This document shows, one piece after another, positions 2,569 to 51,400 of a stretch of 63,879 nt of DNA (position 1 is its first letter; every line of letters starts with the position of its first letter). Source of the stretch: a virus. Lineage: Duplodnaviria > Caudoviricetes. The stretch lies in the IMG/VR virus record IMGVR_UViG_3300010376_000007, positions 1-63,879 of that record; one strand, written 5' to 3'. The notes under the pieces were generated by a model. The model ran no database searches and was not told the DNA's origin. It saw nothing but the letters and a program-made list of their open reading frames with translations. The position numbers were made by a program, and so were the translations under genes.

Positions 2569-2984
2569 CGCGCCGCCGCCCGTCGTGCAGCCTGGTCGTC
2601 TCGATTGCAGCCCATGCAGCGCCGCTTCCCGTTACTGGGTTGGGTGTAGATGTTACCGGCTACCCACGGATGCAAGCCGCGCACACACAAGCCCCCTCGC
2701 TCACGTGCCCGAGAGTCAGTCCCCCGATACTGATTGACTTTCTTCGACACGTATTCCAGATGATCCGGATTTACACAGCACCGCACGTGGCAGACGTGGT
2801 CGCGCTCAGGGGAGCCCACCGGCAGGGGGGACAGCCACAGGTCGTACACCCGCAGGTTCTTCCTGTTGCGCTTGATTTCGGAGTACCCATTGGACGACAG
2901 CGCACCACCCCACAGCCAGCACCCGGTGTTGGGCTCGAAGCAGATCTTGTCCAAGACGCGGGGCTCGATCTCCGTTACCTGCAT
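2565..2984 (-). CDS. HNH homing endonuclease
   Basis: CWLWGG..NGY, DHVCHVRCCVNPDHLE, C-terminal CVRGLH...CMGC zinc motif; lies between TerL and portal. Confidence 0.9.
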   Translation of the reverse strand: MQVTEIEPRVLDKICFEPNTGCWLWGGALSSNGYSEIKRNRKNLRVYDLWLSPLPVGSPERDHVCHVRCCVNPDHLEYVSKKVNQYRGTDSRARERGGLCVRGLHPWVAGNIYTQPSNGKRRCMGCNRDDQAARRAAAR

Positions 2985-4972
2985 CAGCGTCCTGCCACGG
3001 TCAAGTACGAGGTCGGCTCGTACGAACCGCGCTCATGATAGCTGCGCACCTCCTGCAGGAACATCCGCCCGCGCGCCAGGGGCTGACGCGCCAGCACTTC
3101 GGGTGAGACCGGCTCTTCGAGCACGTCGGGGTCCGCGTCGTAGTCGGGCTCCAGATGCGTGTCGAGGTAGGAGTACGAGTCACTTTCCGGCTCACCCTCG
3201 AAGCGACGCTTGATCCACACGTAGTAACCCCACGCGTCCATGGCGTGGTTCATCCAATCGAGCGGCTTTTCCTTCAGATTCTCCTGATCGTTACGCCGCT
3301 TTGGATACCGGTACGCCTTGGCTTCTGCGATGAAGTTGTGACATCCTTTGTCTATTCTGATCCTGGCGCATGAGCGTAAATAGCTCAGTGTGTCACCGAC
3401 GATATCTTCTTCGTTCAGCCGCTCTTCAACTTCGATGGTCAGCAGGCGTTGTTCCTCGACGGGCATGCCCATGTCGGCGTCTTCGGGCAGCCCTTTGCTG
3501 TCCAGCACGAGGTTGACCATGGAGCGGTAGAAGCGGAAGAAGCGTACCGGGTCGCGCAACTGATTGCGCTGGAACGGGATGCGCTCCATGACCTCGGGCT
3601 TCTTCTCGACGATGTACGCGGGGAAGCCCATGCGCTGCCAGCGGCGCATCTCCTCGGGCTGCGCCGAATCGCAGATCATGTCCGAGATGCCCTCGATGCG
3701 CCACTGCGGCAGCAGCGCGCCGTCGGGCGAGATCTGCTGCGCCTGGATCCAGGGGCGCGAGCAGAGTAGCTCGGCCATCTCTTCGGTGCTCCGGTGGTCC
3801 TCGTAGATCTCGTCGAAGACCACCGTCATGTCGGTGTACTCCTGAATGGCCAGGATGCAGTAGGCGTTCGATCCGCCGGATGGGTCGACCGCCAGAATAA
3901 CCGGGAGGTCGGCATTATATTCAACATCCGTCACATGCACCCGCTCTTTGAACTCGGGGAACACCCGCTCCCGCGCGGCGGCTGGGATACCGCCGAACTG
4001 CTCAAGGAACTCGTACGGCTCCATCTCGCGGGCGGCTTGCTGGAGGGCGGGTGTCTGGCGACCCTGCGGGAAAGCGTAAAAGTTGATCTCGTAGGACGCG
4101 TCTTGGAACATTTCCCACGCCGCCTCGGTGCCGTTGCCGACCATGTCAGCACGAGCGTCGACGGCTTTCTGGTGGAAGAAATCACCTTCGCCTTCCCAGG
4201 AACTGATGAGCAGCGCCTGACCATTACGGTCCGTCAGCGGTGGGAGGATAGCCCGGGACCATGCCTCTGGGTAGATCTGCGCTGCTTCGTCAATGATCGC
4301 CAGGTCGATGGCTGCCCCGGCCGCCGTGTGTACGTCATCGAGTGAGACGCCCTCCAGTCGGGCGCCGTTTTCGAGGATGCACAGCTTCTCCTGATTGGTG
4401 TCCCGGACGACGCGGGTCTTGAACTGGTTGTCTCGGATCGACTGCATGACCTTGTCGAAGGAGCGGCTGACCAGGCGCATCGTCGGCGCCGCCAGCCAGA
4501 TCCAACTTCTTGGCCGCAGGATGGCCACGCCGATGGCTTCCATGGCAGCCTGGGTCGTCTTGCCGCCCCGGCGTCCCCAGGCCGCGATGCGGAAGCGGGC
4601 GCCGGAGCGGGTCAGGGCTTGCTGGCCCGTCCAGTGGCCAGGCATGCCGCGACTGGCCCACGTGGCGGTCTCGTCCTGCAGCGCGTGATACTCCCTGAGC
4701 CGGTCGTCGGCCGACTCGAAGCTGCCCACGTAGCGCACCCGCTCGCGGAGGCTGGCGCGGCCGTCCTCATCCAGCGGCACGTACAGTCCGTGCGGACGGT
4801 ACTTCAGGCGCTCGAACGCCTCGAAGCGCTCCTGGGGGGTGATCGGCAGGAACTGCGAGACGTTGGCCTTGGCGCGGTCTTCCCAGGCTGTCAGCCAGTC
4901 GTTGGGCGAGCCGCCCCTGGCCAGGCGAGAGAAGTCGAGCCCCGCCAGGCCAGGCAGCGTGGTCTGGGGCAA
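2984..4972 (-). CDS. terL: Terminase large subunit
   Basis: Walker A WGRRGGKT, Walker B AIIDEAA, coupling motif LISS, nuclease LAVDPSG and C-terminal NHAMDAWGY. Confidence 0.95.
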   Translation of the reverse strand: MPQTTLPGLAGLDFSRLARGGSPNDWLTAWEDRAKANVSQFLPITPQERFEAFERLKYRPHGLYVPLDEDGRASLRERVRYVGSFESADDRLREYHALQDETATWASRGMPGHWTGQQALTRSGARFRIAAWGRRGGKTTQAAMEAIGVAILRPRSWIWLAAPTMRLVSRSFDKVMQSIRDNQFKTRVVRDTNQEKLCILENGARLEGVSLDDVHTAAGAAIDLAIIDEAAQIYPEAWSRAILPPLTDRNGQALLISSWEGEGDFFHQKAVDARADMVGNGTEAAWEMFQDASYEINFYAFPQGRQTPALQQAAREMEPYEFLEQFGGIPAAARERVFPEFKERVHVTDVEYNADLPVILAVDPSGGSNAYCILAIQEYTDMTVVFDEIYEDHRSTEEMAELLCSRPWIQAQQISPDGALLPQWRIEGISDMICDSAQPEEMRRWQRMGFPAYIVEKKPEVMERIPFQRNQLRDPVRFFRFYRSMVNLVLDSKGLPEDADMGMPVEEQRLLTIEVEERLNEEDIVGDTLSYLRSCARIRIDKGCHNFIAEAKAYRYPKRRNDQENLKEKPLDWMNHAMDAWGYYVWIKRRFEGEPESDSYSYLDTHLEPDYDADPDVLEEPVSPEVLARQPLARGRMFLQEVRSYHERGSYEPTSYLTVAGR

Positions 4973-11347: not shown

Positions 11348-11524
11348 CGGGATGAGGATACCACCAGTGTCACGGGCACGAAACTTGACACTGTTAGAGG
11401 TGATGTTGTACCAGTTAGGACGCCCTCCCGGTGGGCAGGCTCCCCGAAGATGGCCACATCTGCACGCGAGCTTCCGGGAGAGGGCGTGGTAACTGTGAAG
11501 AGACGGGAGAAAAGAGCACACGGC

Positions 11525-11738: not shown

Positions 11739-11768
11739 TTGACAACAACTTTCCGGTTCTGGTAAGCT
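11739..11768 (+). promoter_or_regulatory. Sigma70/SigA-type promoter
   Basis: TTGACA-N18-TAAGCT. Confidence 0.7.
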
Positions 11769-11797: not shown

Positions 11798-12586
11798 ATG
11801 CTCAGAAAAACGAAAGACGGCGGCTTCGAGCGCCAGGACTCGGAGGGCAAGTGGGTTCCAGTGAGCGCCGACGAGGCCAGGGCTGCTTCCTCAGTCGGGG
11901 TCGCCCCCGAGCCCGTCGCGGAAGTCGAATCGGTTAGCTCCATGATCGACTCGCTGGTTGAGGAGATCCATTCGGGAAATGGCCAGGCTGAGGTGAGCAC
12001 AGTAGCTGAGCCTGAAGTTGTGGCACCGGCCACTGGAGAAGCTGAGACGCCCTCCTCCCAGGACGGAAATGGTGAAGAGTCGGGTAACGGCACGGTGCTG
12101 GACACCGAGTCGGTGCCGGGCGACTTCGATCTGGAGGTGCCCGGGTTGGTGTCTGGAGACTCGGGCAGATCGAGCCGGGGTTTCAAGACCGTCAGGGAGC
12201 GGCTCAAGGAAAACGCCAGGCGCAGGCGAGAGCCCAGGAAGGTCGAAGTCTCAGGTAGCTCCGCGCTGGTGAGCGGCCCGGCCAAGAAGGAAGGCACCGA
12301 GAAGCGGCAAGCGGCCAGGGCTCAGGCCAGGTTGGAAGCGGGTAAATCGGCAGGGGATCAGGCTGTTCGCGGCCAGCGCTACGTGAACCGTCCCGCTCCC
12401 AGCCTTATGTCGGACCGCCCGAAGTGGGTGCAGGATCTGTTCGAGGCCCACTTCCGGTCGGAATATACGTTAGGTCTTCGTCGGCAGCACAATCGTATGA
12501 AGATCTCGCGGGCGGACTACGCCATCGGCTGGCTGACGGCGTTCGACAAGTTCCGCGAAGAGTCTTCTCTGCTCCGGCTGAAATAG
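11798..12586 (+). CDS. Hypothetical protein (acidic N-terminus, basic C-terminus)
   Basis: AAGGAG RBS; 262 aa. Confidence 0.7.
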   Translation: MLRKTKDGGFERQDSEGKWVPVSADEARAASSVGVAPEPVAEVESVSSMIDSLVEEIHSGNGQAEVSTVAEPEVVAPATGEAETPSSQDGNGEESGNGTVLDTESVPGDFDLEVPGLVSGDSGRSSRGFKTVRERLKENARRRREPRKVEVSGSSALVSGPAKKEGTEKRQAARAQARLEAGKSAGDQAVRGQRYVNRPAPSLMSDRPKWVQDLFEAHFRSEYTLGLRRQHNRMKISRADYAIGWLTAFDKFREESSLLRLK

Positions 12587-12602: not shown

Positions 12603-12896
12603 GTGAGTGAAAGCACAGTAGGGGGGGAGTGGGTTACCCTCCCTCTCTCTGAGTTCGAGCGGCTGCACGAGGAGATCCGTCGGCTGGAGATTGAAGTCCG
12701 AGAGGTCAAGATAGCGGCCGGGCACAGGTGGTGTGAGGAGACGATCTACCGGCTCAAGCAGGAGAAGAAAGAGCTAGAGGTTGAGGTAGCCGGGTATCGG
12801 TGGGGAGAGTCGAACGCCATAGCTGAGTCGCATCTGGAGGGCTACGAGGGGGAGCTTGAGGACGACGATGGGGGCCACGAGAGCAGCCGTGATTGA
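12603..12896 (+). CDS. Coiled-coil hypothetical protein
   Basis: Heptad-like E/L pattern. Confidence 0.55.
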   Translation: MSESTVGGEWVTLPLSEFERLHEEIRRLEIEVREVKIAAGHRWCEETIYRLKQEKKELEVEVAGYRWGESNAIAESHLEGYEGELEDDDGGHESSRD

Positions 12897-13309
12897 ACAT
12901 GATTGAGGAAAATGACTGGGAAGAGTCGAGCCTGGCATCGCCACACGAATCTTCGGTGCCGGAGTTGCCGGGAAGTGGTGTGGAGCACAGCAGTGTGCGT
13001 AAGCCGGAAGTCGAAATCGTCATGCCCGGTAGTGGGGGCCGTAGTCTGTCTCCAGTGTCGATTGGCGGGGGCGGGGTCGAGATTCGAGGAGAGGCCGCAG
13101 CGCTGATCGTGGAGATCCTCGACGATTGGATCCGGGCTCGTAACCGGCGCATCGAGTTCATCCGCCGGGGGGAGATGGACGCGGCGTCGAGGCGAGCAAT
13201 AGCCGAGATCCATCGGAAGACCGGACTGGTATACCGGGTACTGCAGGCGTGGGAGGGGGTCCTGTCTGTTTCGGGGAAAGAAGATACCCGGCCCAATCCC
13301 GAGCCTTGA
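12893..13309 (+). CDS. Hypothetical protein
   Basis: Overlaps the previous stop; 138 aa. Confidence 0.5.
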   Translation: MNMIEENDWEESSLASPHESSVPELPGSGVEHSSVRKPEVEIVMPGSGGRSLSPVSIGGGGVEIRGEAAALIVEILDDWIRARNRRIEFIRRGEMDAASRRAIAEIHRKTGLVYRVLQAWEGVLSVSGKEDTRPNPEP

Positions 13310-13620
13310 ACCGCACCGAACAGTCACCCTTCCGTTGCATAGCACCATAGGGGGCTAGCCCCCCATGGCGATGATGCGCGACGTTGGGCTCGTCCACGTA
13401 TCGTGGGTGACCCAGCGCACGCGCTCGCGCGCGTAGCGCTGGGCCAGCCCACGTAAGGGACGCGTAAGCGCCCACCTCACCTCTATCCCTACCCGGGCGC
13501 GTTGCGCCCTGCGCGCACCATGCCAGTACCCCGCGTGGTCCCCCGCAGCACATGCCTGTGCGAGTTGGCGAGGGGCGTCCCGCCCCCACACCCCCTGGAA
13601 CTGGGGTTCTTGCTGCGCGC

Positions 13621-13822
13621 GCTCCTTCCTCGCGGCTCATGCATGCGCTGGCTTTCGGGGTCTAGCCCAGCACTGCGGTGTCGTCAAGGGCTCCGCAACA
13701 AATCGTGCGCTACGCGCACCGCCCGCAAGGGGCTCGATTTGTTACGTCGCTGATCCTTGACGCCATCCTCGCGCCGGGCTTTTCCGACCCCGCCAGCGCA
13801 AGCTGAGCCACAAGAAAGGAGC
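13621..13822. promoter_or_regulatory. ~200-nt imperfect inverted repeat with a branched tip, Frpo/ssi-like single-stranded promoter candidate
   Basis: Nested pairings GGCTCA/TGAGCC, TGCGCTGG/CCAGCGCA, CGGGGTC/GACCCCG, AGCCC/GGGCT, CGTCAAGG/CCTTGACG, AACAAATCG/CGATTTGTT. Confidence 0.6.
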
Positions 13823-13831
13823 ACTGCCACT

Positions 13832-14242
13832 ATGGCTTCTGCTCTCGACAAACTCTTCGACGGTGCCGCGTCACCTGTCGCCCGCGACCTGAAGGTCGTT
13901 GCCTCTTTCAAAGCTGACGTAAAGCGCGACAGCAAGGGCAACGCGGGCTTCAGCATCCGCCCAGTCCTCTCGGACGGCAGCGAGGGTCGCTTCGGTGACA
14001 TGTGGATCCGGCTGGCCGAGGGCCCGGACACGCTGCGTGCGTTCGCCGCCTCGCTGCCGCAGATCTACGCGGCGATCCAGAAGCTCGACGCCTACATGGT
14101 CGAGGCGGGCGAGTGGAAGGCCGCGCCGAAGGCAGCCCAGCCTGAAGCAAAGCCGGCTGCCAAGCCAGCCGCGCCAGCCAAGCCGGCTCCGAAGCCCGCG
14201 CCTGCGCCGGCGAAGGACATCTTCGACGATCTCCCGTTCTGA
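13832..14242 (+). CDS. Early protein with PAK-rich linker and SSB-type acidic tail
   Basis: AAGGAG RBS; ends KDIFDDLPF. Confidence 0.75.
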   Translation: MASALDKLFDGAASPVARDLKVVASFKADVKRDSKGNAGFSIRPVLSDGSEGRFGDMWIRLAEGPDTLRAFAASLPQIYAAIQKLDAYMVEAGEWKAAPKAAQPEAKPAAKPAAPAKPAPKPAPAPAKDIFDDLPF

Positions 14243-14320
14243 CGGGTGATCACGCTCTGGGGCTGGCCGCGCAAGCGGTCAGCCACCGTTCCATCCACGA
14301 AAGGTGAGGCCGAATCTCAC

Positions 14321-14701
14321 ATGGATACTACTCCATCTTGGGTCGCTGAGACCCGCAAGCAGATCGACGACGTGCGCGCCTGGCTGGCCGACATCGAGTC
14401 CAAGCTGGACCGCTTCAGCACATCAGTTGGCAAGCTGCCGACGCTGACCGTCGACGAGATGGTCGCGGCTGCCGAATCTGCCACGACCGTGCAGAAGGCG
14501 CTTGAGCGCGAGCTTGGCATCGACCGCCGCACCGTGCTGGCCAAAGCCGAGCGGCTGGTCAAAGCACATGGTCTCGATGCCAAGATGCCGGACTGGTCGA
14601 CCAACGTCCGGCTGTGGAAGTACCTGGCCGAACGGCAGCCGTCCGGCAACATCCGCCTGATCGACGGGTTGTTCGCCCTGAAGAGCGAGGTCGCGGCGTG
14701 A
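14321..14701 (+). CDS. Hypothetical protein
   Basis: AGGTGAGG RBS, preceded by a GCAA-tetraloop hairpin (~14258-14284). Confidence 0.7.
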   Translation: MDTTPSWVAETRKQIDDVRAWLADIESKLDRFSTSVGKLPTLTVDEMVAAAESATTVQKALERELGIDRRTVLAKAERLVKAHGLDAKMPDWSTNVRLWKYLAERQPSGNIRLIDGLFALKSEVAA

Positions 14702-14909: not shown

Positions 14910-15173
14910 ATGCTTGGAGTTATCCTGCTGGGCGTCGCCGCATGCATCATCGGGGCCGCGCTCGCGGCCCTCAACGACGCGCTCACGCTCTGGTGGCTGC
15001 GCAGGCAAAAGCCTGCGCCGAAGCCATCCGGCTTCGAGAAACGCCGCGTCTGGACGATGGCCTGCCGCTTTGACCAGCCGCATCCAGCACATCGTTGGCG
15101 CAGATCGGCCTGGAACGCAGGCCACGTACCGACCAGCCACCCGAACTGGTGCCCTGGCTGCCCGCCGCGCTAA
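14910..15173 (+). CDS. Membrane-anchored protein with C-terminal Cys/His motif
   Basis: CCTTGAGGAGG RBS; N-terminal hydrophobic helix; C..HPAH...WCPG. Confidence 0.65.
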   Translation: MLGVILLGVAACIIGAALAALNDALTLWWLRRQKPAPKPSGFEKRRVWTMACRFDQPHPAHRWRRSAWNAGHVPTSHPNWCPGCPPR

Positions 15174-15289
15174 CGCGCGGCTCGGCAGGGTGGCCAGGCT
15201 GTTTCGAGCCGACGGTTCTGCCTTGGCCTGATTCGGCCGTCTTTAGGCTTGAATCCGGCCCGGAATGTGCCCGGCTGAATCCAGTAGCT

Positions 15290-15360
15290 AATCTAATTCA
15301 GCCTTGTCGTGTCTAAGCCATACTTTGTCTTGTAAGACGCTAAGAACGCTGAATTAGATT
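15290..15360. repeat. Perfect 13-bp inverted repeat in a lower-GC non-coding region
   Basis: AATCTAATTCAGC (15290-15302) and GCTGAATTAGATT (15348-15360). Confidence 0.85.
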
Positions 15361-15613
15361 GCAAATGCCCGGGTAGCGCGTTACCTACCGGTATACGCTT
15401 GAATGGGTTGGTAACATAGCATCCGGCGGTAGTAATCGACGTAGAAGCGTAAAACCCAAAATGCCGGTATCCGGTGTAATGTTATGTCAAGCTAGGGCAC
15501 GGATAGGCCTCGTCAAGCGTTTACGGTTGCATCGCGTTACCAACTTCGGCAACCAAGCGTTACAAGACTGTGGGTTGCTAACGTGTTGCACGTTAGTGTA
15601 TGATGCTGATGAC

Positions 15614-24538: not shown

Positions 24539-25018
24539 ATGTCCGAACTACTGTTGTGGCGCCCGGAGTGGGCCGACCGCTTCGACGACCGCATCCGCAA
24601 GACCGACCAGCACTGGCTGTGGGTGGGCTACGTGGACTCCAAGGACGGCTACGGACGCTTCAAGCCACTGCACAACGAGCGGGGACAGCTTGCCCACCGG
24701 CTGGCCTACGTGCGCTGGATCGGCCCCATCCCCGACGAGTTCCCCGTCATCGACCACCTCAACCATCCCTTCAACCTCAGGCGCTGCGTCAGACCCGACT
24801 GCCTGGAGGCGATCACCCACGCCGAGAATACCCGGCGCGGACTCAGTCCCGCAGGCGTCAACGCGCGCCTCACGCACTGCCCCCGCTGCGGCTCCGAGTT
24901 CAACGCCACCAACGCCGTTTACCGGGACGACGGCGAGCGGCGCTGCCGGATCTGCAGACGCGCCGCGAACGCCGTCTACAAAGCTAGGAGGAGGGTGCGG
25001 GAAGCATTGGCAAGGTAG
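24539..25018 (+). CDS. HNH homing endonuclease
   Basis: DGYGRF, AHRLAY, IDH...RRCVRPDCLE..THAENT, THCPRC...CRIC. Confidence 0.85.
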   Translation: MSELLLWRPEWADRFDDRIRKTDQHWLWVGYVDSKDGYGRFKPLHNERGQLAHRLAYVRWIGPIPDEFPVIDHLNHPFNLRRCVRPDCLEAITHAENTRRGLSPAGVNARLTHCPRCGSEFNATNAVYRDDGERRCRICRRAANAVYKARRRVREALAR

Positions 25019-26621
25019 GCACAGGTGGGTCCTGGGCGACGCGCACCTTGAGCAGCACCGTGGGTCGGTGGTCGGCCCAGGTGTAGCCGGGCTCGATGCC
25101 GACCTGGCCCAGGATGGCCAGGATGCGGTGCATCTTCTGGGCGTCGATGGAGCGGTCGATGGCTTTCATGCGCCGCAGCAACATATCCGGGAATAGGTAG
25201 TACGTGTCTTCGTACTTCCAGCCCATGCTGCCCGTGCGCGCGTGGTACTGCGGCAGGCTATCGACTTGCGGCAGCGGGCTGAGCGTGTTCTCGATGGAGC
25301 GTGCCAGGTAGCCCTCGTCGGACAGTTCGACCGGGATCTTCTGCACCTCGCTGACCATGCCCTGCACGGCCCGCATGAAGTTGCTCCAGTTCTGGCCACG
25401 CTGGCCAGGCAGAAACTCGGGCACCCACATACCGGCGCTGGGTACCCAGCAGCGATCCCTGAAGCCCTTCTCGCTCGAAAGCTGGACGTTGGTGGCCTCG
25501 ACCCGCGAAGTTCTGGGCGACGTGCCGGGCTGCGTCACCTCGATCAGCAGCACGTACTCCATCAGGTCGTGGCCGCGCTCGCGGCACACGACTTCCTTGA
25601 CGGTGAAGTTGGCCCCCGAGGCCCGGAGCGCGTTCTGCCGCTCCTCCTCGACGGCGGTCCTGGCGTTGTCGTAAGTGCGCTTGATGTACGCGAAGCCGTA
25701 GCTGCCGCGCCCTTTGGCCCGGTAGCAGTTGTCCCCGATGGGCGAGGCGGCAAAGATCTCCTCGACCTCGTCCAGGCTCTGGTTGCGGCGGATCAGTTCG
25801 CACACCACCGAGTAGTCGATGCCCGAGCCCGACGGATCCGTGCTGAGCGCCCAGGCGGGCGAGCCCGGTGCCCCGTAGCCCGCCACCAGCAGCGAGTCCT
25901 GCACCTTCTTCTTGAGCCGCAGGCTGCGTACCCGGGAAAGAACCAGGGCGCTCTGGGCATCGTCGAGGTACAGGATCCGGTAGCTGCTGCTGGAGGGCGT
26001 TCCAACTGATCCGACGGCGCTGGGGTCGCCGCCGTCTGCCACGTAGGCTTCGACGATGGCCCGGGCAAGCTCGGCTACGTCGGGGACCATCGGCAGCGCC
26101 GCGAAGCTGCCCGAGCGGATCCGGTAGGGTCGGCCCGTGTCGGGGTGCAGGCTGGGCGGCACGACCATGTACGAGGGACCGGCATTGCCGGAGCCCTCAC
26201 CACGGATGTCGCCTGCCTTGCGGCCCTGGCCCAGCGACCACACGCTGGAGCGGATGGGCTGGAGCGACCGCACCCAGATGTGGGCCTTGCCCGAGCCCGA
26301 CTCGACGATCAGCGCGCCGTGGAACAGCATCTCACCGGCATGCGCCAGGACCCACTGCGCCAGGTCGAGGTCGTCGGCGTCCAGACAGTACGCGCCGCCC
26401 GAAACCTTGCCGCAAATGAGACCCCAGCCCATGCGCGGATCCCCGACGTTGATCCACTGCTGGACCTGGGCGTCTGAGGCGGCGCGGCGCTGGTACTCGC
26501 TCCAGCCCGTGGGCAGGATGCGCAGGTACGGGCGTTTGTCCTGAGGCGCCAGCGGGATGATGCTGTAGCCCAGGTGCTGCAGTTCTAGCGCTGAGTGATC
26601 GGGAGCCGGCATGGCAGCCAT
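24984..26621 (-). CDS. Bifunctional primase-polymerase (Prim-Pol) domain protein
   Basis: GYSIIPL..DKRP, WGLICG..SG..CLDAD, SGSGKAHIW, DIRGEG..YMVVPPSLHP.TG.PY. Confidence 0.88.
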   Translation of the reverse strand: MAAMPAPDHSALELQHLGYSIIPLAPQDKRPYLRILPTGWSEYQRRAASDAQVQQWINVGDPRMGWGLICGKVSGGAYCLDADDLDLAQWVLAHAGEMLFHGALIVESGSGKAHIWVRSLQPIRSSVWSLGQGRKAGDIRGEGSGNAGPSYMVVPPSLHPDTGRPYRIRSGSFAALPMVPDVAELARAIVEAYVADGGDPSAVGSVGTPSSSSYRILYLDDAQSALVLSRVRSLRLKKKVQDSLLVAGYGAPGSPAWALSTDPSGSGIDYSVVCELIRRNQSLDEVEEIFAASPIGDNCYRAKGRGSYGFAYIKRTYDNARTAVEEERQNALRASGANFTVKEVVCRERGHDLMEYVLLIEVTQPGTSPRTSRVEATNVQLSSEKGFRDRCWVPSAGMWVPEFLPGQRGQNWSNFMRAVQGMVSEVQKIPVELSDEGYLARSIENTLSPLPQVDSLPQYHARTGSMGWKYEDTYYLFPDMLLRRMKAIDRSIDAQKMHRILAILGQVGIEPGYTWADHRPTVLLKVRVAQDPPVPTLPMLPAPSS

Positions 26622-26628
26622 GCCGGGC

Positions 26629-26934
26629 TCAAGCGGCGACGGTTTGCGCTTCCCCGGCCTCGGACTTCGACTGTGCTGCCGCAGTACGCTTGCCGAGGTC
26701 GGGGTGAGACCGGGCATACGCGTCGAGATCGGCAACCCGGAACATCAATACGCTGGACTTCTCGCCAAGCATGAAGCCTGGCACGCCGGCAGCGCCTTCG
26801 TCGTACAGATTCTTGAGCCGGTAGATGTATTCGCGCGAGATGCCGAGATAGTCGGCGGCTTCCTGGGCGGGCAGCCAGCCCTTGAACGAGACGCGATTGG
26901 CCTGGGTCTGGGTATCTTCTGTACCCGTAGTCAT
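26629..26934 (-). CDS. Excisionase/MerR-like HTH DNA-binding protein
   Basis: WLPAQEAADYLGISREYIYRL...FRVADLDAY; GGAGG RBS. Confidence 0.8.
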   Translation of the reverse strand: MTTGTEDTQTQANRVSFKGWLPAQEAADYLGISREYIYRLKNLYDEGAAGVPGFMLGEKSSVLMFRVADLDAYARSHPDLGKRTAAAQSKSEAGEAQTVAA

Positions 26935-29904: not shown

Positions 29905-30005
29905 TGCCGACTTATAACGTGGATATCTTCAGCTTCGCCGCCGGGGTGCTGTTTGGCATTGTGCTGTTCATGGCCTGTGTCGGCATCCTGCGGAGCCTGC
30001 CCTGA
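29901..30005 (+). CDS. Small membrane peptide (34 aa)
   Basis: Coupled at both ends; single hydrophobic helix. Confidence 0.5.
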   Translation: MMPTYNVDIFSFAAGVLFGIVLFMACVGILRSLP

Positions 30006-32353
30006 TGCCCTTCGCTGAGCGCTGCGCCGAATGTCCTGCCGGCCCTGGCAACCGGGTCAGCGGGGAGTGGTGGGGCGACGTGGACTGGGACGGCCCCGCG
30101 TGTCTGGTGCTGGGCATCAACCCTGGCTATAACGAGGTGCAGGTTGGTCAGCCGTTCATTGGCGCCTCTGGCCAGTTGCTCAAGTCGGCGCTGGAGCAGG
30201 CCGGTGTCAAGCGCGCGTTTCTGACCAACACCTACCGCTGCGCGGGCGAGCCCGACATGAGCTTCGCCAGGCTGTGCAGGGACAAGCTGGAGGCAGAGAT
30301 CGAGCGTGTTCGACCGGCTTATATTCTGGCACTGGGCAACATCCCCGTGCAGCGACTGCTGGGAAGAGGAACCATCGGAGCAGTCGCCGGCAAAGAGATC
30401 TGGTCCGCCCGATACAACGCCTGGATCCTGCCAGCATTTCACCCCGCCGCTATTCTTCGCAATCGCGGACGGGAGAATGCTTGGCGTGCCGACATCCATC
30501 GCTTCGGACGGCTCGTTCGAGGAGAACTGGAACCACCCCCCGCTACACCTCCGGTACGTGTCGATCTGGTGGGCTCAGGGAGCGGCCTGCGGGTACTCGA
30601 CCAGGCTCTTCGAGTAGAGCCCGGCTGGACGTACGACTTCGAGACCAACATCCTGCCGTGGTGGCACGTCGGCTTCCGGATCTACTCGGTGGCGTTTTCG
30701 TTCACGGGCCAGGAAGCGTACTGCCTGCCCATCGCCCACCCCGAGTGCGACGCGGCCTGGACGGCAGCCGTGCTCAAGTGGATGGCGCGCATCCGCCCGG
30801 TGATGACCGACACGCAGACCTCTCGCACGGTCCACAACGGCGTCTTCGACGATCTGGTGTGGTACCGGGCTGCGGGCTACCTGCCCAGGCCGACGTTCGA
30901 CACGATGATCGCGCTGCAGTTGCTCGACGAGAACGCGCCCAAGTCGCTCAAGTGGGCCGGTAGAGCACATCTGGGGTGGCCCGACTGGGACATCGACGCC
31001 AGGAAGTACCACCCGCTGGCCGATCTATACCCGTACAACGGCTACGACGCGGCGGCGACGCTGCTGCTACGCGAGAAGCTGCTCGACCGTCTCCGGGAGG
31101 AGCCGCTGGTGCTGCGCTACATGGCCCTGCTGGAGATGCCGAAGCTCCGGTCCCTGGAGCGCCTGATCGCCAGGGGCATCTACGTCAACCGGAGCAGGGC
31201 GGCGAAACTGTACCGCCAGGCTCGCGGCGAGCAGCGCGCCGCCGACGCCCTGGTGCCGGTCACCAACCCTGCGAGTTCGCGCCAGGTGGCCGACTGGCTG
31301 TACTCCCAGCAGGGGCTACCGGTCATCAAAAACGGGAAGCAGCACCCGTCGACAGACGAGGCAACTATAAAGACGCTCGCACAGCAGTTTCCTGAGGCCC
31401 GCCGGATTCTCGATTGTCGCCGGCCACGGAAAAAGATAAGCACATACTTTCGACCCATAAATCATGCAACCAAGCAGTCGTTCGACGGTCGGTTCCACCC
31501 CGAGATGCGGACAACCAGCGTTGAGACAGGCCGTCTTGCGGGTTTCTTCCATACGACCCCCCGAGATACCAGCGTACGCCCTGTTTTCTCGGCTCCACCA
31601 GGCATGGTGCTGATCCAGGCCGACTACCGGCAGATCGAGGCCAGAATCTGTGCCTGGATGGCCGCTGGGCGCCCCGAGACGTGGGACGGCGTCAACCCGC
31701 TGACGATGCTGTGGGCCTTCCACGAGGGCCAGGACATCTACGTCGACTTTGCATCCCGGGCACTCAGGAAATCTGAGTCGAGCATCACCAAGGAGGAGCG
31801 TCAGATCCTGGGCAAGGTGCCGGTGCTGGCGCAGCTTTACGGCATCAGCCCCGAGGGGCTCAGGGAGTACGCCTGGAAGACGTTCGAGATCAACTGGACC
31901 CCGCAGCAGGCCCAGGCGCTCTGGCTGCTGTTCCGGCAACGCTATCCCGAGTTCCCGCAGTGGCATCGTTTAGCCGAGGCGAAACTGATGCGGCGCGGCT
32001 ACGCCCAGACGCCCATCGGCCGCATTCGGAGGCTGCCAGACGCGGTGTACGGCCAGCGCGACGCGATTCGGAGCGGCATCAACGCCGAACCGCAGTCGCT
32101 CGCCTCCGACATCACCCAGCAGGCGCTGATTCTGCTCGATTCAGCCGGCGCCAGGATCGTCGGAGACATTCACGACGCGCTGCTCTTCGAGATCAGGGAG
32201 GATCGAGCCGCCGGCGCGTGCAGGCTCATCAGGCAGGGCATGCTCAAGGCCCCGGTCGAGCTTCAGAAGCTGGGGTTGTGGCTTCCCGAGGGGCTGATCG
32301 ACGTTGAGATCACGGCTGGGCCGTGGGGTCTGGGCAAGACCGTGCCCGACTGA
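30005..32353 (+). CDS. Family A DNA polymerase with N-terminal uracil-DNA-glycosylase-like and 3'-5' exonuclease domains
   Basis: UDG: CAEC, GINPG, TNTYRC, FHPAA; Exo: YDFET, HNGVFD, YNGYD; Pol: ADYRQIEAR, K....AQLYG, IHDALL. Confidence 0.92.
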   Translation: MPFAERCAECPAGPGNRVSGEWWGDVDWDGPACLVLGINPGYNEVQVGQPFIGASGQLLKSALEQAGVKRAFLTNTYRCAGEPDMSFARLCRDKLEAEIERVRPAYILALGNIPVQRLLGRGTIGAVAGKEIWSARYNAWILPAFHPAAILRNRGRENAWRADIHRFGRLVRGELEPPPATPPVRVDLVGSGSGLRVLDQALRVEPGWTYDFETNILPWWHVGFRIYSVAFSFTGQEAYCLPIAHPECDAAWTAAVLKWMARIRPVMTDTQTSRTVHNGVFDDLVWYRAAGYLPRPTFDTMIALQLLDENAPKSLKWAGRAHLGWPDWDIDARKYHPLADLYPYNGYDAAATLLLREKLLDRLREEPLVLRYMALLEMPKLRSLERLIARGIYVNRSRAAKLYRQARGEQRAADALVPVTNPASSRQVADWLYSQQGLPVIKNGKQHPSTDEATIKTLAQQFPEARRILDCRRPRKKISTYFRPINHATKQSFDGRFHPEMRTTSVETGRLAGFFHTTPRDTSVRPVFSAPPGMVLIQADYRQIEARICAWMAAGRPETWDGVNPLTMLWAFHEGQDIYVDFASRALRKSESSITKEERQILGKVPVLAQLYGISPEGLREYAWKTFEINWTPQQAQALWLLFRQRYPEFPQWHRLAEAKLMRRGYAQTPIGRIRRLPDAVYGQRDAIRSGINAEPQSLASDITQQALILLDSAGARIVGDIHDALLFEIREDRAAGACRLIRQGMLKAPVELQKLGLWLPEGLIDVEITAGPWGLGKTVPD

Positions 32354-45496: not shown

Positions 45497-45858
45497 CAGT
45501 CGTGGCCGAAGATCGCCGCGTAATTGTCCCTGTAAGCGTCGGATGGGGCGGAGAGAAACCTCTCCGCCCCCGCCGACTTGGTCCGCCAGCGTGACTCACG
45601 GCCGAGTCGATGGTCAATGTCTACCCCGGTCGAGGTGGTTCTGGTCCACGTAAACCCGCACCCCCCCTTCCGGACATCGGCGTTGAAGATCGACCAGTCG
45701 TGGACGCCTTCACGGACGCCAGACCGGTCGCCTTCGCTGCGATGGGCTGCATCGACTTCCATGCACCCGTCGGAGGGGCAGCGGTCGTAGTAATCGCCGT
45801 CCTTGGACGAGTTGGCCGGGGGATCTACGTGGGTCCCCTCAACGTGAATGACGGTCAC
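45496..45858 (-). CDS. Hypothetical protein
   Basis: GTGA overlap with the capsid stop; CPSDGC...GCG. Confidence 0.6.
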   Translation of the reverse strand: MTVIHVEGTHVDPPANSSKDGDYYDRCPSDGCMEVDAAHRSEGDRSGVREGVHDWSIFNADVRKGGCGFTWTRTTSTGVDIDHRLGRESRWRTKSAGAERFLSAPSDAYRDNYAAIFGHD

Positions 45859-47078
45859 GACTGACTGGAACCAACCTCGCCTCGGAACAGCCACGCGTTG
45901 CGCGTGCGGGCGTAGCCCTCGATACCGTACCAGCCGAAGGTGAGGAAGCGGCCGAGTCGGTCGAAGGGGCCGGTGACCACCGTCTCGCCGTAGGGGCCAG
46001 TCCAGTCGGAGCTTGACTTGGTGACGCTGTTGGGGCCGAAGACCGGAACGGGGAAGACGGAGTTGTTGTTGGTGACGGCAGCGCCGGAGGCGTGCGCGAA
46101 GCGGAGGCCCGCAGCGTCACCTGGGCCTGGGTCGAGAGCGAAGCCAGTGATCGTGGTGCCAGCAACGCCAGTGACCATAAACAGTTCATTGGAGTCGCTC
46201 CACGTGTTACCGGGCTCCGTCGCGTCCTGAATCGCCAGCCACATGCCCACGGTGATGTTGGTGCCCGCCGCGACGGTGATCGTCGTGTCGCCAGGGTTGG
46301 CGGCGGTGCCCAGCGTGGTCGCCACGGCAGACGCCGGTGCCGCGCCCGCGCCCCAGAAGCCCTTGGCGTTGGCGGTCACGATCATCCTGAGCCCGCCCCA
46401 GTAGGCAAGCTCGCCGTTGAACAGCAACTCCGGATGGCTGTACTGCGACATGGTGCGCAGCCCGCCGTTGGCGTTGTCCTGCATCAGGTCGTAGAACACG
46501 AACGGATGCACGGCGGTCGCCACGGCGCCGTCCTCGTACAGCGGCATCTTGGTCGCCCGCGCGCCAATCATCGACAGCAACTCGATGAAGCGGATCGACA
46601 TCTGGTCGGCGGTCACCGTCTGGCCAGTGAACTGCGACCGGGCGGTGTGCTTGTTCTGGAACCATACCCGGGAGCCCTGACCGAACACCGCGCGGGCGAT
46701 GTAGTCGTAGCTCTCCGCCAGGTTGTAGCCGTTGATGTACGCGGCCTGCTTGTACACGTCGGCGTAGGCGGTCGCCACGAGGAACTTGGTGACCTCAATC
46801 GCGTTGCCGTACTCCGACAGGGTGATGACCACCTCGGAGCCGCGCATCTGCTGCGGGGCCACGTCGATGAGTTCGTCGAGCACAGTCGGGTTGGGCTGCA
46901 GCGACTCGATGATCGGGAAGTTCTGGCTGATGCCGCGCTGCCCGTTCATGATCGGACCCTTGAGGTCCGCGAACTGATCCCAGTACAGGACGCTCTGGCC
47001 CTGGATGTAGAAGTCGGCGTCGTATAACGCTTTGACCTCCGGAGCAAGCGCAACGGTGCCGGTTGTGCCCTGCGGCAT
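45855..47078 (-). CDS. Major capsid protein (N4-gp56-like HK97 fold) with a beta-rich insertion
   Basis: TLSEYGNAIEVT, VHPFVFYDL, LFNGELAYWGGLRMI, DRLGRFLTFGWY. Confidence 0.88.
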   Translation of the reverse strand: MPQGTTGTVALAPEVKALYDADFYIQGQSVLYWDQFADLKGPIMNGQRGISQNFPIIESLQPNPTVLDELIDVAPQQMRGSEVVITLSEYGNAIEVTKFLVATAYADVYKQAAYINGYNLAESYDYIARAVFGQGSRVWFQNKHTARSQFTGQTVTADQMSIRFIELLSMIGARATKMPLYEDGAVATAVHPFVFYDLMQDNANGGLRTMSQYSHPELLFNGELAYWGGLRMIVTANAKGFWGAGAAPASAVATTLGTAANPGDTTITVAAGTNITVGMWLAIQDATEPGNTWSDSNELFMVTGVAGTTITGFALDPGPGDAAGLRFAHASGAAVTNNNSVFPVPVFGPNSVTKSSSDWTGPYGETVVTGPFDRLGRFLTFGWYGIEGYARTRNAWLFRGEVGSSQS

Positions 47079-48452: not shown

Positions 48453-51400
48453 CTAAGATACGTTCTCCGGTTGTTCTGGGTCCAGGCCCTGGATCTGACG
48501 CAGGCCGACGTACTTCTTGTTGGACACCCGCGACAGGTAGGCCATGTACTCGGCCAGCGTACCCCGATTGTGCTCGTACGCGGGACCCAGCGGGTCGGTC
48601 TCGCCTTTCCACTCGATGAGCGGGCGCGGGTTGGGCACATTCTGGTCGTCGTACGAGGTCTTCTCTTCCTTGGTCAGGCTGTTCCACAACCGGGTCGCCG
48701 CCACGCGCCGGTTCCATTCGTCCTTGGGCAGCACCCCGCCAGGGAACTTCTTGGCGTCGTTCCACTCGTCCAGCGTGCCGTCCTTGAATTGCTTCCACTC
48801 GGTCGGGGTGAGCGCCGAGCCCTCGCCCTCCCACTGGAAGTACGCGTCGCGCTGGGCCGGGGTGATGCTGGGGTCGCGCAGAACTTGCTTGGTCGTCAGC
48901 GCGGTCGCCCGCCGCCTGGCCTCGTCGAGTTGGTTGAGGTGCTCGTCGGGCTTCCAGCCGTACAGCGGGTCGCCCTGGATGTACGTGCTGCCGTGCTTCT
49001 GGTCACGGTTGTTGGCGACCGTCAGTTCCTGATCCCACTTGGCCCAGTCCTGCGCGTTGCCCAGCGGCTGGCCATTCTCGTCGACGTACTTGTAGGCCGT
49101 GACCTTCTGCCTGACCGCCTCAGCCCGGTCGTAAGAAAGCTGATCGGGCGTCTGGTCGGCTACCGGCAGCTTGCGCAACTGGATGCGGCGGGCCAGGTTG
49201 GTCTGGTCGAGTTGCGGCCCGTTCGGGTTGGTGGCGTTGATGGCGTTGACCGTATTCGACAGGTACGTCTCCTTGGCCATGCGCGCCGCGTCGGGCGGCA
49301 GATCCTCCTGGGTCTTGGCGTCTTTGCCCGCGTTGGTGTAGCCGTTGATGATGTCATCAAGCTGGCCGCTGGTGACGCCCGGAATGGGGGGCGGCGCCCC
49401 ATCGCCGTACATCTGCGCCTTGAGCGTGTCCTGCAGCACATCGTAGTCGACGCCGTAGGTCTTGGCCGTGTCGGCCATCCAGCGCTGGCGCTGGTCGGCC
49501 AGTTCGCCCGCCGCGTCCTTACCCGGGTGCGAGGCGAGCCCGCGTCGTCCGCCCGCCTGCAGGTCCGCGACGAGGTTCGGGTCGCGGTTCCAGGCCATGC
49601 GCACGAGGTTCTGCACGTAGTCGCTGGGCTGGCCGGAGGTGTCCAGATCGGCAGGCACGTCGGCCCCCCGGTTGGTGTTCTGGTCGTCCAGCCAGGCGAT
49701 CTCCTGGCGCAGCCGTGCGTCTTCGGGCTGCGTCTCGGGGCTCAGCTTGAGTTTGGCGTCGATCTGGTCCTTGCGGACCTGGCTCTCGGGCTTCTTGTCC
49801 CCCAGCGCGCTGCTGATCGACTTGCCTCGGTCCCCGTACGTAGCGTTGGGATCCTCGACGCCGTTGATCAGATTGGCGATGTGCTGGTCGACGCCCATAT
49901 TGGCGTTGCGGTTGTTGTCGAGGATGGCCTGCCAGTCGCGCGGGTCCTTACCGGCGTCCTTGATGAACTCATCCTGCATGTCGAAGAAGCGTTCGGCTTC
50001 GGTGCCGTGCGACAGCCGCGCGCCCGTGACGGCCGAGCCGAGCGTGGTCTGCCACGGCTCGCCGGTGGTGCCGCCCTTGATGACCTGGGTCACGCCCGTT
50101 GGCAGCATGTGCTGCGCGGCAACGTTGACGCGGTTGATAGCCTGCTGCCAGAACGGATCGTCGTTACGGTCGAGCGGGCGCCCCGCGAAGTCGTGGTCGT
50201 CGAGAAGCTGTGCCGCGCCGGTGCCCAGCATACTGCCGCGCGCCGAGGCGAAGTCCTTCATCCGCTGACCCGGGTCGGGGCGCGGGATGGCCAGCGAGAC
50301 ATCCTCGCCAGGCTTGGGGAAGTAGCCCGCGATGGCGGGGCCACCGGGCAGGCTCATCGGGTCGACTCCGACGCCCTTGGCCGCTGCCACGGTCGAAGCC
50401 CTGCCCAGGTCGATGATGGGCTGCAGCAGGCCCTTGTACGGCCCCAGCACGTCGATGTACGGCGTGAACTTGTTGCCCTTGGAATCGGTCGTCGACCAGC
50501 CAAACTTGTTGTATAGATTGGTGGCGTCGACTTCGAGCACATGATCAGGGTCGTTCTGCCACGAGAAGTGCCCGCCCAGCGCCAGGTTGGAGGCTTCCAG
50601 CAGGAACGCCGACTGCAGCGCGGCGTTGGCCCAGTACTGGCGCGACATCTCGCCGGTGGGGGTGTTGAGCGCAGAGGTGCCGATCAGCCGCGCCCAGGAT
50701 TCGGTCCAGTCGGGCGCCAGCATCGTCAGCCGCATGGCGTCCTGCACCGTGCGCGAGCGGGCGATGGCCTCCAGATTGTTGCCGCCGTAGACCGTGTTGG
50801 CGAACTCGGCAGCCGCCTTGCCGCCGTACTTCGGGGCGTACATCTCGTAGGTGCTGAGCTTCATCATCGGGATGGTCCGGTTCCACAGACCCTCGCTGAT
50901 GGTCTCGACCAGGCTCTTGGTGCCCATACCCCGGAACTGCTGGCCCAGCAGCATGCCAGTGCCCGGCGCCGTGGTCGCCGCACCCATCGCCGCACCGGCC
51001 AGGCCCCACTTGATCTGGTCCTGCACGTCGCCGCCCGCCGCCGCCGACGCTTGCGAGCCCACCAGCGCGCCGCCGCCGACGTTCATCAGCGTGGTGGCGA
51101 TGCGCGCCTTGGTGCCCGTCACGTCGTGCTCCGCCAGGGTGTTCAGCGACAGGCCGTCCTTCATGGCCTGCTCGATCATGCCGCGCGACTTGGCGTCGGA
51201 CATGAAGTTCCTGAACTCGCCCGGGTTGAGGGTGCCCTTGACGATGCTGGACATGTTGCCCAGGCCGCTAGTGCCCTGCGTCGCCCAGTACTGGCGCCAC
51301 TCGTTGGCCATGTGGAACAACGAGCCCGACAGCGTGTTGTGCTTGAGCGCCGCGTTCATCTGCATGACCGGCTGGACCAGATAGCGCAGGCCAGGCGCGT

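Follow-up and report, generated by a model that had tools for sequence, protein, structure and literature searches.

The window analysed here is a complete viral contig, from a soil phage, of 63,879 base pairs (bp; IMG/VR record IMGVR_UViG_3300010376_000007). In its rightward gene block, a conserved slot of 520 nucleotides (nt) at 13310-13831 shows no codon periodicity and is non-coding. Substitution periodicity against three syntenic relatives places plus-strand coding before the slot, at 11798-12586, 12603-12896 and 12893-13309, and codon periodicity marks the plus-strand gene behind it (13832-14242) as coding. The slot contains a branched hairpin of 206 nt (13619-13824), whose base includes the Shine-Dalgarno sequence (SD) of this gene. 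The gene encodes a protein of 136 amino acids (aa) that ends in a tip like that of SSB, the protein that binds single-stranded DNA.

Promoters and priming signals made of folded single-stranded DNA (ssDNA) are known from conjugative plasmids, ssDNA phages and phage N4. Our survey of the literature on ssDNA and hairpin promoters in phages turned up only N4-type, AR9 and plasmid cases. An earlier note on this DNA, made from its letters alone, likened the hairpin to Frpo, a promoter of the conjugative leading region that works when ssDNA folds. Here we report a computational follow-up of that comparison. Pairing in the hairpin is kept on the template strand of the downstream gene, not on the mRNA strand; this strand preference is the main new result. 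We argue, at a probability of roughly 40%, that the element is a single-strand initiation signal of the Frpo type.

A hairpin kept on the template strand

Every complementary segment named in the earlier note was found. On the plus strand, GGCTCA and TGAGCC face each other at 13634-39/13804-09, GCGCTGGC and GCCAGCGC at 13644-51/13793-800, and CGGGGTC and GACCCCG at 13656-62/13786-92. Further paired segments join CAAGG (13685-89) to CCTTG (13755-59) and GCAACAAATCG (13695-705) to CGATTTGTTAC (13735-45). In all, 11 helices make up the structure, which ends in a Y-shaped tip; in relatives there is a third small branch, absent from the window. The two tip hairpins read GTGCGC-TAC-GCGCAC (13705-19) and GCCC-GCAAG-GGGC (13721-33) on the plus strand. 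On the minus strand the first becomes a mini-hairpin, GTGCGC-GTA-GCGCAC, with a 6-bp stem and a C-GNA-G triloop (13705-13719), and the second (13721-13733) has a covarying stem and a variable loop. Both are surrounded by an invariant A/T-rich helix, helix 9 (13695-13745, minus strand; GCAACAAAT / ATTTGTTAC on the plus strand), in which nine of 12 pairs never vary and one, column 98/151, is U.G on the minus strand in 7/7 sequences. At the base, the plus-strand arm GCTCCTT (13621-13627, invariant in 7/7) lies opposite the invariant SD, AAGGAGC (13816-13822), followed by the ATG at 13832. The SD is within the base helix in all seven sequences.

We compared the fold of a 220-nt stretch with 200 dinucleotide shuffles for each molecule and strand. 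Folded as DNA, both strands lie far below the shuffle energies, the plus strand at -63.8 kcal/mol (z -6.9) and the minus strand at -78.2 kcal/mol (z -10.0). The RNA folds reach -117.8 kcal/mol (z -8.4) on the plus strand and -142.8 kcal/mol (z -11.6), the best of the four, on the minus strand. None of the 200 shuffles was as good in any of these comparisons. When 220-nt windows were slid along the whole contig, the minus-strand fold at 13601 was the top outlier after correction for guanine-plus-cytosine (GC) content (z -5.8); in the same scan the plus-strand fold of that window ranked 13th genome-wide (z -2.5). Rfam gave no match at gathering score over the window, and its best E-value over 13200-13900, 0.065, is far below that score.

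Is the structure under selection? A metagenome scan yielded at least eight syntenic loci. The full upstream region is present in seven, its 3' two-thirds in L008 and none of it in L003; the hairpin aligns in all sequences that carry its region. RNAalifold on the minus-strand alignment of seven sequences gives a consensus of 79 pairs at -110.35 kcal/mol. Standard pairs fill 93.6% of the 549 cells and 40 of the 79 pairs have changed on both sides, but because the seven sequences are related (70-81% nucleotide identity) such counts overstate the number of independent events, which weighs against the interpretation developed below. Column shuffles reach none of the five pairing measures (0/500). 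When partners are slid by 1-3 columns, a control that preserves relatedness, pairing falls to 36-44%, and whole helices have been swapped between subgroups, for example GGCTCATGCATGCGCTGGC versus GATTCCGCACAACTGCTGGTGA. The structure is kept in related phages with abundant compensatory change, so that the objection that it might not be conserved in relatives falls away.

A covariance model of the hairpin core finds the element exactly once in the window, and once per locus in the seven loci containing it; weaker matches on the opposite strand are its mirror image. The parts that are invariant in sequence are helices (CAAGG/CCTTG, AACAAAT/ATTTGTT, GCTG/CAGC and the SD helix), and the loops and tip stems vary. 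This is the reverse of the usual pattern in structured RNA and would fit recognition of a DNA duplex. Motif scans elsewhere produced chance matches: two scans of a viral contig collection gave five loci, all inside unrelated coding DNA, and one of a genome contig collection gave three, in low-complexity or unrelated DNA. Protein scans of the viral contig collection, which apparently does not include near records, found nothing for the close family of the 136-aa protein or for P0048.

The wobble pairs indicate which strand folds. On the minus strand the consensus structure contains 49 G.T cells in 17 columns and only four A.C cells in four columns. Had the plus strand been selected, this ratio should be reversed; as observed, it favours the minus strand. 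Three minus-strand G.T pairs are invariant in 7/7 sequences. In helix 1, next to the SD, subgroups have different pairs, which on the minus strand are still Watson-Crick or G.T; on the plus strand, Watson-Crick pairs there alternate with C.A mismatches. The minus strand is the more stable in all seven sequences; its lead is 12-33 kcal/mol under RNA parameters and 8-18 kcal/mol under DNA parameters. The plus-strand consensus (-81.48 kcal/mol, 68 pairs, 36 of them compensatory) is 29 kcal/mol weaker and 11 pairs poorer. We conclude that the folding strand is very probably the minus strand, the template for the downstream gene.

Given a minus-strand fold, we favour ssDNA over RNA. Of the minus-strand hairpin loops in eight sequences, 12 of 26 are C-GAA-G or C-GTA-G triloops; no plus-strand loop is (0/25). 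Passages of PMC13037366 describe GCGNAGC-type DNA mini-hairpins as far more stable than their RNA versions, as poor binders of SSB, and as present at the G4 primase origin, RSF1010 ssiA and the N4 hairpin promoters. By itself the GCGNAGC heptamer is no rarity in a genome as GC-rich as this one (41 plus-strand and 57 minus-strand copies); the weight of these motifs comes from their position at the tips of covarying hairpins. By this analogy the loop types hint at DNA rather than RNA.

Other identities for the hairpin were considered and dropped. A 6S-like RNA was discarded for its internal loops, which are small here (2 vs 6 nt), and for want of a model match. A hairpin telomere or protelomerase site was set aside, since the palindrome branches and is imperfect and no enzyme of that kind turned up. 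Retron-like multicopy single-stranded DNA, considered because such DNA is antisense, found no counterpart: there is no reverse transcriptase among the scanned proteins, which represent part of the open reading frames.

The gene, the slot and the genome around them

The earlier note called the downstream gene early and its product SSB-tailed. The first label rests on position only. The second is correct as to the tail: after an N-terminal domain of about 95 residues and a Pro/Ala/Lys-rich linker, the 136-aa protein ends KDIFDDLPF, with the tip DIFDDLPF, compared with SDDIPF in the F-plasmid SSB. At least 31 close relatives occur in metagenomes, and the domain and linker are shared among them. 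I-F-D-x-L-P-F is invariant in 24/24 (IFDDLPF in 23, IFDTLPF in one). There are only 19 clusters at 50% identity among 1.84 billion representatives, and of 15 distant representatives 12 end in [DN][LMF]PF. Bacterial and plasmid SSBs share this layout: a folded domain at the N terminus, then a disordered P/A-rich linker, and at the C terminus an acidic D-D-[IL]-P-F tip.

Identity as an SSB was not confirmed. The protein matches no Pfam or PHROG family, SSB (PF00436) included, and the 10 distant representatives scanned belong to no Pfam family. Its AlphaFold model (predicted local distance difference test score 70.7) has three strands and a long helix followed by disorder, not the five-strand OB barrel. 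Fold searches returned weak PC4/Pur-alpha/COMMD-like rows only (Foldseek E-value ~0.1; VIA Z 3.0-3.2), and on this modelled fold the PC4/Pur-alpha likeness is a lead, not an assignment. The SSB-type tail is therefore confirmed and the SSB is not, because the tip is conserved while family and fold searches are empty or weak.

The first 27 nt of the gene (13832-13858) are invariant in 9/9 sequences, synonymous sites included, and their codons are low in GC and rare in this genome. At 13816-13846, GGAGCA of the SD region can pair with TGCTCT in codons 3-5, which gives a small plus-strand hairpin around the AUG with a plus-strand G.U.

Upstream of the hairpin, about 300 nt (13310-13618) are conserved like coding DNA but without codon periodicity. 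This stretch has conserved hairpins of its own at 13345-13368, 13392-13453 and 13572-13586. They show the same minus-strand bias in weaker form, and the windows at 13281-13401 are also minus-strand fold outliers; in this stretch the minus strand is also G-rich, a composition that by itself promotes folding. Iteron-like GCGT(A/C)GC copies lie near 13430, 13465 and 13498, and GCACCAT occurs three times. In L007 and L009 all three GCGT(A/C)GC copies carry C, and in the other sequences most carry A; such concerted change points to a common binding factor. Genome-wide, the 9-mer CGCGTAGCG shows no enrichment (47 matches vs 38 expected). In a distant relative, L019, the genes stand in the same order and there is a non-coding slot of about 500 nt; the L019 protein shares about 44% identity with a distant family member. 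That slot is filled with other hairpins and with five tandem 11-nt repeats, GTAACGSTCCG, plus inverted copies (1060-1115 of L019). From the iterons, the hairpins and the contents of the L019 slot, the slot looks like an origin or control region whose architecture varies by lineage.

Two further features of this stretch may be recorded. In the hairpin at 13572-13586, GGGGCG-TCC-CGCCCC, the loop of L002 is inverted (GGA on the plus strand) over an unchanged stem, which looks like the flip of a palindrome tip. At 13483-13506 the plus strand has a G-free C/T/A-rich tract (CCCACCTCACCTCTATCCCTACCC) whose composition is kept and whose sequence is not, the minus strand being G-rich and C-free.

The genome is that of a tailed dsDNA phage. 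A terminase (2984-4972, minus strand), a major head protein (45855-47078, minus strand), tail fibre proteins, PolA, primase and helicases bear this out. The rightward block codes for a uracil-DNA glycosylase-PolA fusion, a primase, two helicases, an exonuclease, a Sak4-like annealase and a resolvase-like nuclease. In the DNA polymerase A (30005-32353, plus strand) an N-terminal uracil-DNA-glycosylase-superfamily domain is fused to exonuclease and polymerase domains, and the protein is less than 30% identical to the PolA of any listed phage. The primase-like gene (24984-26735) lies on the minus strand inside this rightward block, adjoining an HNH endonuclease gene (24539-25018, plus strand). 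Three consecutive minus-strand genes, at 48453-56081, 56086-58503 and 58179-63335, encode giant proteins of virion type (2542, 805 and 1718 aa). Their only recognizable domains are those of peptidoglycan hydrolases (glucosaminidase and NlpC/P60; M23), and about 4000 residues have no assignment; an Atlas search with the 1718-aa protein returned M23-type matches only, all below 0.9. No RNA polymerase was matched among the phage proteins, the giant ones included, by Pfam, PHROGs or PDB sequence search. As candidates for a virion RNA polymerase, D.D.D motifs were rejected, being found only in acidic low-complexity runs.

By DNA (blastn) or protein, cultured-phage and plasmid collections hold no relatives. 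Among contigs from four runs, a source-like one spans the whole stretch unchanged. No tRNA or tmRNA was found, and the GC-skew and AT-skew profiles track gene orientation and indicate no origin. The contig ends (1-123 and 63757-63879) are an exact 123-bp direct repeat, compatible both with the assembly overlap of a circular or permuted genome and with true terminal repeats; for this reason the physical termini cannot be read from the coordinates, and the suggestion that the hairpin lies near the entering genome end finds no support.

Thirty nucleotides before the first rightward gene (11798) stands a conserved sigma-70-type promoter, TTGACA-N18-TAAGCT (11739-11768, plus strand), with a TG upstream of the -10; TTGACA and TAnnnT are invariant in 4/4 aligned sequences. 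It shows what a genuine duplex promoter of this clade looks like. Because it precedes the rightward genes, plus-sense read-through across the hairpin is likely, and this promoter is the likely source of such RNA. More perfect TTGACA hexamers occur in the divergent region at 11385 (plus) and 11794 (minus). Behind the SSB-like gene, 15155-15460 is low in GC (0.48 vs about 0.65 for the genome) and holds a 16-nt inverted repeat, 15290-15305/15345-15360, that is 94% complementary. Its first part, 15155-15294, is 82-86% identical in four relatives, above its flanks, with an RNA fold z of -5.2 for the low-GC stretch. Judged by sequence, it may be a second regulatory or origin region.

Promoter-like hexamers and known folded-strand signals

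If the folded strand were a promoter, where would RNA polymerase bind? The earlier note pointed to TTGACG (13757-62) and, 17 nt on, to TTTTCC (13780-85), which it already called mismatched and off consensus. Both hexamers are present, yet this plus-strand pair (13757-13785) matches the consensus at only 5+2 of 12 positions, under our 7-of-12 cut. The better candidate is in the 3' arm of the minus strand (13659-13687): TTGACG (13687-13682), 17 nt, then TAGACC (13664-13659). Once the minus strand is folded, its 3' arm would act as the non-template strand; the TA of TAGACC looks onto an asymmetric internal loop with GGAAAA, the complement of TTTTCC, on its template side. In six of the seven sequences this pair matches 7-8 of 12 positions and the 17-nt spacing is kept. 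The TTG is invariant, within CCTTG, and the loop-facing TA is found in 5/7. The invariant A/T-rich helix lies upstream, at about -45 to -53.

These features recall the Frpo/ssi (single-strand initiation) signals, such as Frpo1 and Frpo2 of F and ssi2 and ssi3 of ColIb-P9. In the parts of PMC9849209, PMC11541004 and PMC7736820 that bear on this, Frpo drives ssb and its RNA also primes DNA synthesis; PMC9849209 and PMC11541004 describe a stem that reconstitutes -35 and -10 boxes, with an A+T-rich UP element. Like these signals, the phage element is a long imperfect template-strand hairpin directly upstream of an SSB-type gene. Pairing kept on the template strand is just what an ssDNA promoter of the Frpo type needs. 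We folded the Frpo2 region upstream of F ssb: it forms a hairpin of about 310 nt whose template (T) strand folds better than its complement (-100.8 vs -93.9), a weaker bias in the same direction as in the phage. Its best hexamer pair is TTGACG-17-TTTTGT, 5+3 of 12, in the arm nearer the gene, so that both stems carry a TTGACG -35-like hexamer with a poor -10 seventeen nucleotides away. The phage hairpin differs in being shorter (206 nt), in its branched tip with GNA mini-hairpins, in a -10 that lacks T-7 and in belonging to a tailed dsDNA phage without known ssDNA entry. The description Frpo-like stands for the template-strand hairpin and its conserved structure; it fails for sequence, which has no similarity to F, and is poorly served by the weak -10.

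Two other groups of signals share part of this design. Primase-type ssi signals, the G4 complementary-strand origin and RSF1010 ssiA/ssiB, are also strand-specific folded ssDNA with SSB-resistant GNA-type mini-hairpins, as passages of PMC13037366 have it, and iteron-like repeats adjoin both them and the phage hairpin. The known signals, however, are 40-140 nt long with defined primase contacts, and the phage hairpin is 206 nt and abuts an SD. The early promoters of N4 are template-strand hairpins with a 5-7-bp stem and a 3-nt purine-containing loop, again according to portions of PMC13037366. The phage tip hairpin, on the template strand with a 6-bp stem and a GTA or GAA loop, is close to this, but it is embedded in a much larger conserved stem, and N4 needs a virion RNA polymerase, none of which was detected in the phage by Pfam, PHROGs or PDB sequence search.

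A different resemblance is to phage leaders that sequester a ribosome-binding site or are processed by RNase III, such as the lambda N leader and the T7 early sites. The phage, too, has a long hairpin between early genes whose base holds the next gene's SD; its pairing, however, is kept on the antisense strand, not on the mRNA strand. In the predicted fold of a full-length plus RNA the SD is paired with the 5' arm, which agrees with the note's idea that read-through RNA would hide the ribosome-binding site. In a leader that starts at 13792, inside the 3' arm, the SD falls in a weaker, small local hairpin.

Explanations weighed

We favour, at about 40%, an Frpo/ssi-like single-strand initiation signal on the template strand: synthesis of RNA would begin within the stem and continue into the SSB-like gene. 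The two strands of the hairpin stretch would first have to come apart, for instance at an origin or close to it, where a fork passes, or in an intermediate of recombination. The minus strand would then fold into the 206-nt branched hairpin, with very stable GNA mini-hairpins at its tips. On ssDNA otherwise coated with protein, the stem would offer a duplex platform: the invariant A/T-rich helix, the invariant CCTTG with its -35-like TTG and, about 17 bp beyond it at the place of a -10, an internal loop that is already open. An RNA-synthesizing enzyme would start in the stem and copy the 5' arm rightward; host RNA polymerase is somewhat more likely in this role than the alternative, the phage primase. 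The resulting RNA would have a leader of about 40 nt that lacks the 5' arm, and hence the anti-SD partner. It could be translated into the SSB-like protein, prime rightward DNA synthesis, or do both. Read-through mRNA from the 11739 promoter would contain both arms and bury the SD.

This initiation-signal reading makes sense of the strand bias and the mini-hairpin caps, of the duplex segments that never vary, of the loop that is open beforehand and of the SD's place within the hairpin. It leaves unexplained how, and at what time, the minus strand becomes single-stranded. A narrower form, in which the hairpin acts as an ssDNA sensor, is doubtful: the strand, whenever replication or recombination exposed it, would recruit host RNA polymerase and yield the short-leader mRNA for the SSB-like protein, its caps resisting SSB while the ribosome-binding site on read-through RNA stays buried.

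Several observations weigh against the initiation signal. The phage has no known stage with a single-stranded minus strand. The -10-like hexamers (TAGACC, TATACC, TAGAAC, CAGGAT) lack T-7 in 5/6 cases; L006 has no hexamer pair here, and a 26-nt extra branch stands between its -35-like and -10-like sites. Matches of 7-8 of 12 are common by chance, and the palindrome itself yields the plus-strand mirror candidate; the real promoter of the clade, unlike the stem hexamers, is canonical (TTGACA-N18-TAnnnT). By blastn against 15 kb of the F leading region, the hairpin has no sequence similarity to F Frpo (best E-value 0.98); the similarity criterion for Frpo/ssi sequences in the relevant part of PMC11541004 is a BLAST E <= 1e-6. 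The phage has one copy of the hairpin, whereas F carries two, as a passage of PMC9849209 states. The base of the F hairpin ends about 35 nt before the SD, and that of the phage includes it. The slot of L019 has neither the giant hairpin nor a strand preference. Finally, the G.U asymmetry and the GNA triloops would fit a minus-strand RNA too.

Such an RNA is the first alternative. A leftward transcript started at or beyond 13826 could fold as a structured antisense RNA, perhaps together with the upstream hairpins, and regulate the ribosome-binding region of the SSB-like gene, or it could be a non-coding RNA in its own right. Phages are known to make antisense RNAs across ribosome-binding sites, P22 sar and lambda OOP among them. 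A preference for the minus strand is just as compatible with RNA, the minus RNA fold is the best of the four (-142.8, z -11.6), and the neighbouring windows at 13281-13401 are minus-strand outliers as well; the invariant synonymous sites in the gene's first 27 nt would allow an overlapping signal. But no promoter-like site of at least 8 of 12 matches lies on the minus strand in 13826-14400, no U-run follows the hairpin on that strand, and the region is inside a rightward operon whose flanks are coded on the plus strand. Rfam has no match, the invariant positions are in helices and not in loops, and GNA triloops are markedly more stable as DNA, in the account given by parts of PMC13037366. We consider this unlikely.

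Less likely still is that the selected molecule is a plus-strand mRNA leader. Read-through from 11739 would fold and hide the SD, and translation would need RNase III-type processing or opening of the base helix, possibly with protein feedback. The lambda N leader, the T7 early processing sites and the autoregulation of T4 gene 32 are parallels. The hairpin does lie in a plus-strand operon behind a conserved canonical promoter, its plus RNA folds well (-117.8, z -8.4; 68 consensus pairs, 36 compensatory), and the SD and its partner are invariant, GCTCCTT pairing with AAGGAGC in 7/7. The alternative pairing of the SD with codons 3-5, with its G.U on the plus strand, and the gene start that is invariant at synonymous sites point the same way. 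What counts against the leader is the wobble pattern: plus-strand mismatches are nearly all C.A, that is, the other strand's G.T (49 vs 4), even where pairs have been replaced. In addition, the plus consensus is 29 kcal/mol worse, its fold ranks only 13th genome-wide, and no GNA triloop is found among its loops.

To about the same low degree we credit a priming site at an origin, without any role in gene expression. With the 520-nt slot as the phage origin, an initiator would bind the iteron-like repeats, the exposed minus strand would fold, and the phage primase or a host primosome would prime rightward synthesis. The GCGT(A/C)GC copies that change in concert in L007 and L009, the five 11-nt iterons of the L019 slot and the mini-hairpin loops, which resemble the G4 origin and RSF1010 ssiA, are in its favour, as are the single-copy hairpin and the primase, two helicases and PolA that the phage encodes. 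A priming site alone, however, does not account for the overlap of base helix and SD in 7/7. The 9-mer CGCGTAGCG is not enriched (47 vs 38 expected), the A/T-rich and partly conserved 15170-15460 is another candidate for the origin, and the clade has no known primase recognition rule. Least probable is an element acting as duplex, either an operator or cruciform bound or cut by a phage protein (its invariant half-sites are inverted repeats, but covarying branched tips and wobble asymmetry require single-strand folding), or N4-type promoters for an unrecognized virion RNA polymerase, for which the tip hairpin (6-bp stem, 3-nt loop, template strand) and the giant virion proteins (2542, 1718 and 805 aa), which for the most part lack known domains, would speak and against which stands the failure of Pfam, PHROGs and PDB sequence searches to find an RNA polymerase.

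Whatever the mechanism, the hairpin is a structured non-coding element that is new, covaries strongly and belongs to no Rfam family, and the gene behind it belongs to a small uncharacterized protein family that places an SSB C-terminal tip on what, in the model, does not look like an OB domain. A conserved, strand-specific, DNA-type hairpin at the ribosome-binding site of an SSB-like gene would extend the principle of folded ssDNA to replication-coupled gene control in a dsDNA phage, and would provide a compact, testable cis element as well. And if the hairpin is indeed a sensor of ssDNA, no promoter of the Frpo type would precede it outside conjugative elements and ssDNA phages, and it would couple the supply of the SSB-like protein directly to the amount of naked ssDNA.

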